Of a stretch of 64,000 nt of DNA, positions 1 to 5,005 are shown piece by piece. Source of the stretch: Eledone cirrhosa (lineage: Eukaryota). Position numbers and translations under genes: made by a program. Position 1 is the first letter of the stretch; every line of letters starts with the position of its first letter. The stretch is taken from assembly GCA_964016885.1 (NCBI GenBank), contig OZ024742.1, forward strand, positions 211,792,001 through 211,856,000, read 5' to 3'. The notes beneath the pieces are model-generated. The model saw only the letters and a program-made list of their open reading frames with translations, had not been told where the DNA came from and made no database searches.

Positions 1-892
1 GACGGTGGAATCTCAGATCACAGAGAACCATGTCATGATCAGAGAGTAGAGTTTTCTCCACTGCAATATTGTGGATATTGTCAGTGTGATTGCTGAAAAT
101 TAAGTCTAGGACGTTTTTGTGGCACCTCGTTGGTTCGAGCACTAGTTGGGATAGGAAGAAATCATCCATGAAGTCAAGAAGCGATTCCACAGCTTCCCTG
201 TCAGAGGTTGAGGCAGAAGAACCTGGTGGCAGGGTGTTTGTGGACCAGTCAACTCCGGGGAGGTTGAAGTCCCCCATCATTAAGATGTTGTCAGGGTGAC
301 ACTCTTGGATGAAACACTTTATGCTGTTGAGGCATTCCTTGAAGCATGGTACAGGCGTTTGGGGTGGCCTATAGAGCCCAACTACTAATAGGTTGTTGGT
401 TTGACTGAATACAGTGACTGCCTCACAGTATCCATTAGTGAATATGTTCATAGCCTCTGTTGAGAAAGAATTATGGACATAAATGGCAGTTCCGCCCTTT
501 CTTCTGCCAGCGCGATCAGCACGGATGGCTTTGAAATTTTTCACTTTCACCTCGGCTTCCAAGTGGAGGTTACTGAGATGGGTTTCAGTGAGGACGAAGA
601 AAGGGATGTGGTTTGGATGGACATCAATCCAGTCCTCCAGGAATTTGATCTTCCATTTTTGAGTATTGGTGGAAGGGCTGATGCCTTGGGCGTTAAGCAA
701 AAATGTAGAGGCGAGAGTGGATGGTTTTAATTGTTTTGGTGTGTTGTTAATTTGTTTGTTTGTTAATGGCAGCAATGGGAGTTTGTGCAGTGGGGTGATA
801 GTGGAGGGTGGTGCTGGGTGATAGCTCGAATGTTTTTTTCCAGTTCTTTTGCCAGATTCATTATGGCTAAAAAAGAGGAAGAAGTTTCCTGT
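1..892 (-). CDS. LINE ORF2 N-terminus, AP-like endonuclease (partial)
   Basis: Manual translation: LLNAQG..VLTETHL..RADRAGRRKGGTAIYV..LVVGLYRPP..MGDFNLPGVDW..QLVLEPTR..VLDLIFSN..LSDHDMV. No stop from 892 to the window edge, which probably explains its absence from the ORF track. Confidence 0.9.
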
Positions 893-1895
893 TTAGAAGA
901 CTGTTGGTGACTGTGGTAGTGGTTATTTTTATGTAGGTTATGGTTTTTGTTTTTGCTTTTATTTTTAATTTTATTTTCATTTATCCGACGGGTCCCCGGG
1001 AGATGGGTAAAGAGACAATCCCGGTCTAAACACAATCTGTCTCGCAGGGAAAAACGGCAGATTTGTGGATTCCTTGTTTGGTGTTAAATTAGAGTATGTA
1101 TTATGGTGGTGGCTGTTTGTGGGGATAGATCGTTTTGTCCTAGGTAAATGGGTGAATTTGCAGCCACTATCCGTACATATTCTATAGCGTAGAGAGTAGC
1201 GGCAAATGATGGGGTTTCGAGTGGGTGGGTATGTGGGTGTGGGTGTTGTGAGAGGTGTAGATGATGGTTTGGGTAGGATTTGACGACCTTTGTGGACTGT
1301 GGGAGGGAGTGTTCTTGTTCTGGTATTAGAAGGTAAATTCCTTGACATAGCAGTAGACAAAAATGTTGTAGTAGTAGTAGTAGGCAGAGATGTTGGCAGT
1401 GGTGATGATTGGACTGCTGGGCCAGAGAAAGGATGTGGCGTTTCATGCTGTGAGACAGAGGCTACTGGGGGGATCAATAGTTTCATTTAGTAGATCGGCC
1501 ATTGTTGATGAATCAAGGAGTGGTTCACACTGTTGTTGTCGTTGTTGTTGTTGTTGCTGTAGCTGTTGTTGTTGTTGTTGTTGTAGCTGTTGTTGTTGTT
1601 GCTGTTGTAGCTGCTGTTGTTGTTGTTGCTGCTGCTGGACAGCATTCGAAGAGAAAACACACCGTAGTTTATCCAAATGTTTATTGATTAATTTAAAAGC
1701 AATTTCGATTTGCTTTAATTTATTTTGAATCTGTTGTTCAGATCGAGTTTTCAAAAATTGAACTGTACGTTTAGCAATGTCGTTCAGAGATGAAGCATCT
1801 ATATTTTCTGTTTGGAAAAGGCAATGCCATGTGTTTATTAGAATGTCGATTTCATTATCAGACCAGTTCTGTTTGGATTTTTGCTGGTTAGCCAT
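763..1895 (-). pseudogene. LINE ORF1 with two frameshifts: Myb/SANT-like N-terminus, polyQ, two CCCH zinc fingers
   Basis: [24 protein letters not shown]; a Q-run; TRNPIICRYSLRYRICTDSGCKFTH and TRNPQICRFSLRDRLCLDRDCLFTH (C-x8-C-x4-C-x3-H) in successive frames. Confidence 0.75.
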
Positions 1896-1928
1896 TCTAG
1901 TTTTGAGTGTGTGTGTGTTTTAGTTATT

Positions 1929-5005
<3,077 letters not shown>

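Follow-up and report, generated by a model that had tools for sequence, protein, structure and literature searches.

The LINE family that has one copy at the start of the window (the whole stretch of DNA that was analysed, 64,000 nucleotides) very probably makes an ORF1-ORF2 fusion by programmed −1 frameshifting, judging from the sequences of the family and its relatives. The signal at the junction of the two reading frames is real and strongly conserved. We regard −1 slippage as the likely source of ORF2 because ORF2 has no start of its own, because it overlaps ORF1 in the −1 frame, and because a slippery heptamer in the overlap is kept in distant relatives. The original prediction had proposed such a fusion, and had named an in-frame ATG before the APE domain, a single ORF1-ORF2 frame and a heptamer that is not conserved as findings that speak against it. 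None of these was found, and the prediction is supported at the level of sequence.

Organization of the ORF1/ORF2 junction

The element is an APE-type non-LTR retrotransposon (LINE) with dispersed, 5′-truncated copies and an ORF2 that contains APE and RT. We call the family CR1-like, a provisional label given by resemblance. The window copy contains the following features, with the basis of each given in brackets.

868–874, minus strand: slippery heptamer T TTT TTA, the predicted −1 shift site, followed by G at 867 (sequence; relatives)
763–892, minus strand: ORF1/ORF2 overlap of 130 nt, with ORF2 in the −1 frame (frames; family loci)
893–895, minus strand: TAA that bounds the ORF2 frame on its 5′ side, 6 codons ahead of the heptamer (sequence)
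763–765, minus strand: ORF1 stop codon TAA (sequence; family loci)
832–838, minus strand: A AAA AAC, the second phased heptamer and a possible secondary shift site (relatives differ here)
1–892, minus strand: 5′ part of ORF2, linker and APE, the frame continuing past the window start (Pfam PF14529/PF03372, PF00078)
763–1895, minus strand: ORF1, about 390 aa in intact copies and broken by two indels in the window copy (domains; copy comparison)
1896–1930, minus strand: 5′ UTR remnant adjoining a long (TA)n-type microsatellite (sequence; copy comparison)

The layout is the one originally described from the letters of the window. The ORF2 frame opens at 892, directly after the TAA at 895–893, and runs in the −1 frame across the last 43 codons of ORF1 up to the TAA at 765–763. 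The heptamer, at 874–868, had been placed about 20 nt into the overlap and lies 18 nt into it, phased as X XXY YYZ on the ORF1 codons S-F-L (tcT TTT TTA). The first methionine of ORF2 is codon 148 (position 451), past the conserved Asn (694–692) and Glu (586–584). Between the heptamer and APE lies a low-complexity linker, which in the window's family comprises 60 codons.

The A AAA AAC heptamer inside the overlap (838–832) had been overlooked in the original prediction. As the main shift site it is ruled out, since relatives do not share it. An arrangement of the SART1 type, in which the ORF1 stop lies at or next to an ORF2 AUG, is absent from the junction, where the ORF2 frame has no ATG before codon 148. 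The TAATG at 863–859 was considered as such a stop-start and ruled out, its ATG being in the ORF1 frame.

Taken by itself, the window's family provides modest evidence: given S-F-L, these codons have a probability of about 0.01, and an open −1 frame all the way to the ORF1 stop has one of 0.25. The case is strong because of the relatives and not because of this family alone.

A DNA search of the same genome returned 1144 candidates; 39 of the 40 that were scored are other copies, all identical over 481 nt. If loci were chosen by likeness to the junction, the same junction, the 130-nt overlap and the lack of an ATG before the APE domain were found in 30/30 fetched loci, 17 of which have an intact ORF1 of 383–395 aa. 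If copies were chosen by the APE protein alone, 22 out of 30 reach the heptamer and all 22 keep T TTT TTA, the remaining 8 being 5′-truncated and ending downstream of it. The six full copies likewise have no ATG before the APE domain, and all six share a common 3′ end with TTCAAAG repeats. Among the 576 copies with exact flanks a frame-fusing extra T (T7) occurs in only 6, so that ORF1 and ORF2 do not form a single frame, and T5 occurs in 3. Of the genomic copies containing the 27 nt that come after the heptamer's AG (615), 591 have TTTTTTAG directly before these 27 nt. The genomic copies are neither frame-fused nor spliced. As they keep the heptamer and TTTTTTAG and rarely contain T7 or T5, the frameshifted, ATG-less layout is the propagating form.

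ORF2 has 1045 open codons in the window copy, with APE followed by RT. In an intact copy, Pfam places PF03372/PF14529 at ORF2 residues 82–289 and PF00078 at residues 585–828, and it found no protease domain in ORF2. Compared to an intact copy, ORF1 of the window copy has gained a base near 1473 and lost 20 nt near 1080, the two disabling indels noted in the original prediction. ORF1 consists of a weak Myb/SANT-like N-terminus, poly-Gln, two CCCH-type fingers and an F-L-x helix; the Myb_DNA-bind_4 match is weak and below the cut-off, and the fingers were assigned from CCCH-like motifs. Searches for ORF1 homologs gave only a poly-Gln artefact and no Atlas match.

Conservation of the slippery site in relatives

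Searches with divergent APE proteins revealed four more families in the same genome, and a metagenome scan provided further relatives, of which the best 80 of 455 confirmed loci were used; a scan of viral contigs found none. From these 85 rows (80 from metagenomes and 5 families of the own genome) 9 were dropped for want of the conserved Asn and 1 because it had no upstream DNA. In a quick tree search the window's family falls into a clade that comprises 28 rows (SH-aLRT 100). L203, whose sequence is too short for the tree, was assigned to this clade by its 62% identity to L186, leading to 29 rows. A homologous x-F-L is present in ORF1 of 24 out of the 29, and APE identity among these 24 families has a median of 30% and a maximum of 64%. 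In two members of the tree clade, L195 and L207, the contigs contain ATGs upstream and lack a long ORF1, which speaks against the proposed mechanism.

To spell the homologous x-Phe-Leu, 21 of the 24 families use T TTT TTA, compared to 0.6 expected from their own codon usage (P about 3e-33 if the families were independent, which they are not fully). The same codons occur in none of the 92 other Phe-Leu pairs of these elements. All 21 sites continue with G, even where the encoded residue differs (E, D, A, G, V). The heptamer is therefore conserved beyond the needs of the protein. It was first sought inside the open overlap; as these codons occur at no other F-L of ORF1, a search for the motif by itself leads to the same position in the 21.

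The three exceptions stay slippery as judged from their letters. L177 reads GAG GAT TTT, that is G GAT TTT, which is known as a viral shift site (G_GAU_UUU; PMC5009743), L178 reads CAG TTT TTA, that is G TTT TTA, and L203 reads T TTT TTG. The −1 signal is defined by a phased X_XXY_YYZ heptamer, in which GGA and GUU are also tolerated as the first triplet (PMC3542737).

A further argument arises from the −1 frame itself. It contains a stop every 11 codons upstream of the site (469 of 5364) and none in the 34 to 201 codons between the site and the ORF1 stop. With the ORF1 protein kept fixed and synonymous codons resampled, the joint log10 P of this open frame is −34, the families being treated as independent, and the +1 frame has 148 stops vs. 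129 expected. The −1 overlap is present in 23 clade members, spans 121 to more than 500 nt with a low-complexity linker, and has the heptamer at a median of 5% of its length. A −1 frame kept open beyond the heptamer but not ahead of it is what one expects if ribosomes enter there.

We extended the comparison to the wider LINE set. Among the 47 loci with an upstream ORF of at least 100 codons, ORF2 is in the −1 frame in 35, in the same frame in 8 and in the +1 frame in 4. A −1 overlap together with at least 50 upstream codons was found in 41 loci, some of which are close kin (L168/L172, L226/L238). A canonical heptamer is present in the right phase in 32 of them, compared to 5 and 11 in the wrong phases and 10.0 expected. 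If tolerated triplets are included, a list that was taken from a review and added once misses were seen, 39 out of 41 have a phased heptamer, compared to 14.4 expected and to counts of 6 and 14 for the wrong phases. No ATG precedes the Asn in 24 of the 41, and 9 have one within 15 codons of it. Instead of the T-run, other branches possess A AAA AAC in K-N-L motifs, G GAA AAC, or G GGA AAC just before the ORF1 stop.

Proposed translation of ORF2 and its alternatives

Together, these observations point to a mechanism in which most ribosomes would read ORF1 through to its stop, giving a protein of about 390 aa that ends in the conserved F-L-x amphipathic helix. In a minority, tRNA-Phe and tRNA-Leu may move back by one base on the U-run, and these ribosomes would continue through the low-complexity linker into APE and RT. 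The predicted fusion has about 1,390 aa (357 ORF1 residues and 1037 ORF2 residues) and would be made at a fixed low ratio beside abundant ORF1p, like Gag and Gag-Pol. Its predicted trans-frame peptide is QETSSSFLSHNESGK (or the F-F form). In the zero frame the tail of ORF1 after F-L forms an amphipathic helix throughout the clade (F-L-E-x-h-x-x-h-K-x-E), followed by a Gln/Pro-rich end; the helix tail would be part of ORF1p and missing from the fusion. As ORF2 contains no detected protease domain, the fusion would not process itself. The whole clade, like the window's family, is likely to express ORF2 by a −1 shift at the conserved U UUU UUA G.

It is improbable, though the best of the alternatives, that ORF2 arises by termination-reinitiation or by AUG-independent initiation near the ORF1 stop, with the heptamer as a by-product of the Phe-Leu motif. 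Reinitiation is established in SART1 (UAAUG; PMC2699510) and AUG-independent initiation is favoured for ORF2 of L1 (PMC5009743). In the window's family the conserved Asn comes 23 codons after the ORF1 stop, and the near-cognate codons ATT and TTG occur in frame. Of the 23 clade members, 7 have an in-frame ATG ahead of the Asn, 5 of these within 15 codons, so that some members could initiate ORF2 on its own. The other 16, however, have no ATG before the Asn at all, in 8 members the Asn codon lies immediately next to the ORF1 stop (end −2), and the ATG of the TAATG mentioned above is in the wrong frame for a restart. Reinitiation also leaves the long open −1 frame unexplained. Regarding the by-product, F-L-E and the helix are indeed conserved as protein in the clade, but a motif at the protein level does not account for three synonymous positions being kept in 21 of 24 families.

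A splicing origin appears very improbable. Here TTTTTTAG would be a 3′ splice acceptor, and a spliced mRNA would join an upstream exon with an ATG to ORF2. The 21 of 24 sites that read TTTTTTAG do resemble a pyrimidine run followed by AG, in one ORF2 phase throughout. The 14 nt upstream are only 37% pyrimidine, however, and contain another AG in 18 of 24 families, and in the 21 none of the three free positions ever has C in place of T. The AG is missing from L177, L178 and L203, which remain slippery, and the A-run heptamers of other branches have no AG. A spliced ORF2 template would be expected to retrotranspose, given the cis-preference of such elements, but the sequence upstream of the AG is kept in all except 24 of the 615 genomic copies considered above, and none of the 30 copies selected by APE begins at the AG. 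Contigs of four sequencing runs of unrecorded type contained no joint at the heptamer's AG, which we do not count as evidence.

Slippage of the RNA polymerase on the T6 run, adding one U and thereby giving some fused-ORF transcripts, has just as little probability: the homopolymer run is present and T7 copies exist, but the transcripts that make ORF2p should be those copied into the genome, so that many T7 copies are predicted where we find 1%, with T5 similarly rare, and both the strict phasing (39 loci vs. 6 and 14) and heptamers such as G GGA AAC fit tRNA re-pairing rather than the polymerase.

Programmed −1 frameshifting in retroviruses usually involves a second, structural element 3′ of the heptamer. 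The weak GCCA..TGGC hairpin noticed in the original prediction is real and starts 1 nt after the last base of the heptamer, but it is no better than shuffled sequences (z 0.3). No stable local structure above shuffles was found 3′ of the heptamer in the window's family (z about 0), nor a stimulatory stem-loop 5–9 nt downstream, by folding that covered local stem-loops. Across the 24 families, folding is strongest in the first 50 nt past the site (mean −8.5 kcal/mol vs. about −4.5 in the flanks). Compared to a protein-preserving null the mean z is −1.27 (SEM 0.25), with 9 of 24 families below −1.65 and the window's family at −0.3. We consider this clade-level structure a trend only, of modest strength; a shared covarying structure or compensatory pairs were not found in 8 relatives. 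As the window's family has no local 3′ hairpin, the shift would have to rely on the bare heptamer with its 3′ G or on an element that is weak or distant, and the site is best described as one that would work like a retroviral −1 signal without the usual second element.

Comparison with known systems and other LINEs

The gag-pol site of HIV-1 (U_UUU_UUA; PMC5009743, PMC3542737) has the same heptamer, phase and 3′ G as the LINE, and GGG after the HIV site affects the efficiency of the shift (PMC5009743, PMC3542737). The layout is also the same, with a structural ORF in the zero frame and an enzyme ORF in the −1 frame that has no AUG of its own. In contrast to HIV-1, the window's family is a non-LTR retrotransposon that does not possess the stem-loop 5–9 nt downstream, and the LINE overlaps are long and contain the low-complexity linker.

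A −1 frameshift has been stated for APE-type non-LTR elements before. According to a review (PMC5911963), which cites two element descriptions from 1992 and 1998, TRE5-A and TRE3-A of Dictyostelium are said to require it for ORF2. They share the APE with the LINE analysed here, for which such a shift is predicted, and differ in the host and in an ORF2 with a C-terminal zinc finger. SART1 of Bombyx and mammalian L1 resemble our LINE in making little ORF2p from the downstream ORF of a bicistronic RNA, but they make it as a separate protein from a stop-start or a short spacer, whereas we find a wide overlap, no ORF2 AUG and a conserved phased slippery site. Zorro3 needs its ATG (PMC1965478). The available text of the 2016 recoding review names gag frameshifting of HeT-A, TART and the unexplained initiation of L1, and no ORF1-ORF2 frameshift of a LINE (PMC5009743). 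The available parts of PMC1925062 and PMC5443660 hold nothing relevant, and a literature search, which excluded most subscription papers, Repbase entries and supplements, gave no paper in which a conserved slippery site is described for CR1-like LINEs.

Like the CR1/L2-lineage LINEs of the Jockey superfamily (PMC4120745), the elements have two ORFs, an ORF2 with APE and RT, a variable ORF1, 5′-truncated copies and a short repeat tail. The ORF1 described here, with its weak Myb-like part and two CCCH-type fingers, is unlike the domain types given in the available text of that paper (RRM/CCHC, Tnp22, PHD, esterase). The words Myb, CCCH and overlap are absent from its main text, and it allows unclassified type V ORF1s.

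The mechanism would be of a known kind in a new setting. We lean towards the wider view that −1 frameshifting is an ancestral and common ORF2 route in a large part of the CR1-like LINEs, where the working enzyme would be an uncleaved ORF1-APE-RT fusion, the equivalent of Gag-Pol, made partly without an RNA stimulator. If this holds, the uncleaved fusion accounts for both cis-preference and stoichiometry with no need of reinitiation. The translation of ORF2 in LINEs has long been an open question; the cases treated in reviews are reinitiation in SART1 and the unexplained AUG-independent start of L1, and a conserved, phased shift site of viral type makes the question directly and cheaply testable. 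Frameshifting at this site predicts a fused ORF1-ORF2 protein, would move the annotated ORF2 start in such elements, and would add thousands of natural −1 sites, some without an evident RNA stimulator, to those available for studying frameshifting in animal cells.

Several individual elements deserve mention. L168, L172 and L127-L153 (own genome) represent two young LINE families in which ORF1 ends with G GGA AAC and then TAA; in these two families ORF2 has 957 and 945 codons, no ATG before APE, and −1 overlaps of 52 and 19 nt. L230, L232, L234, L236 and L237 have G GAA AAC (ORF1 x-E-N), a phased but non-canonical heptamer, close to where the −1 overlap begins. Two branches (L240, L253, L254, L244, L245, L247, L255) carry A AAA AAC in a K-N-L motif of ORF1, 184–460 nt ahead of the ORF1 stop, with the −1 frame open to APE. 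In L252 an N-P-G-P motif in the ORF2 frame before APE resembles a 2A-like ribosome-skipping peptide and is, by motif, a candidate for a different recoding solution in a related LINE. L224, L231 and L217 have a long upstream ORF in the frame of ORF2 with one stop between; L224, which has no ATG before APE, is a candidate for stop-codon readthrough.

We further report that copies of the window's family lie mostly within (TA)n/(TATG)n microsatellites on both sides (window positions 1930 to about 5000; flanks of L031-L036), which suggests a target preference for TA repeats. In L032, L033, L035 and L036 the stretch before the ORF1 ATG recurs further upstream, and the 5′ UTR seems to consist of tandem units of about 200 nt, like monomer promoters.
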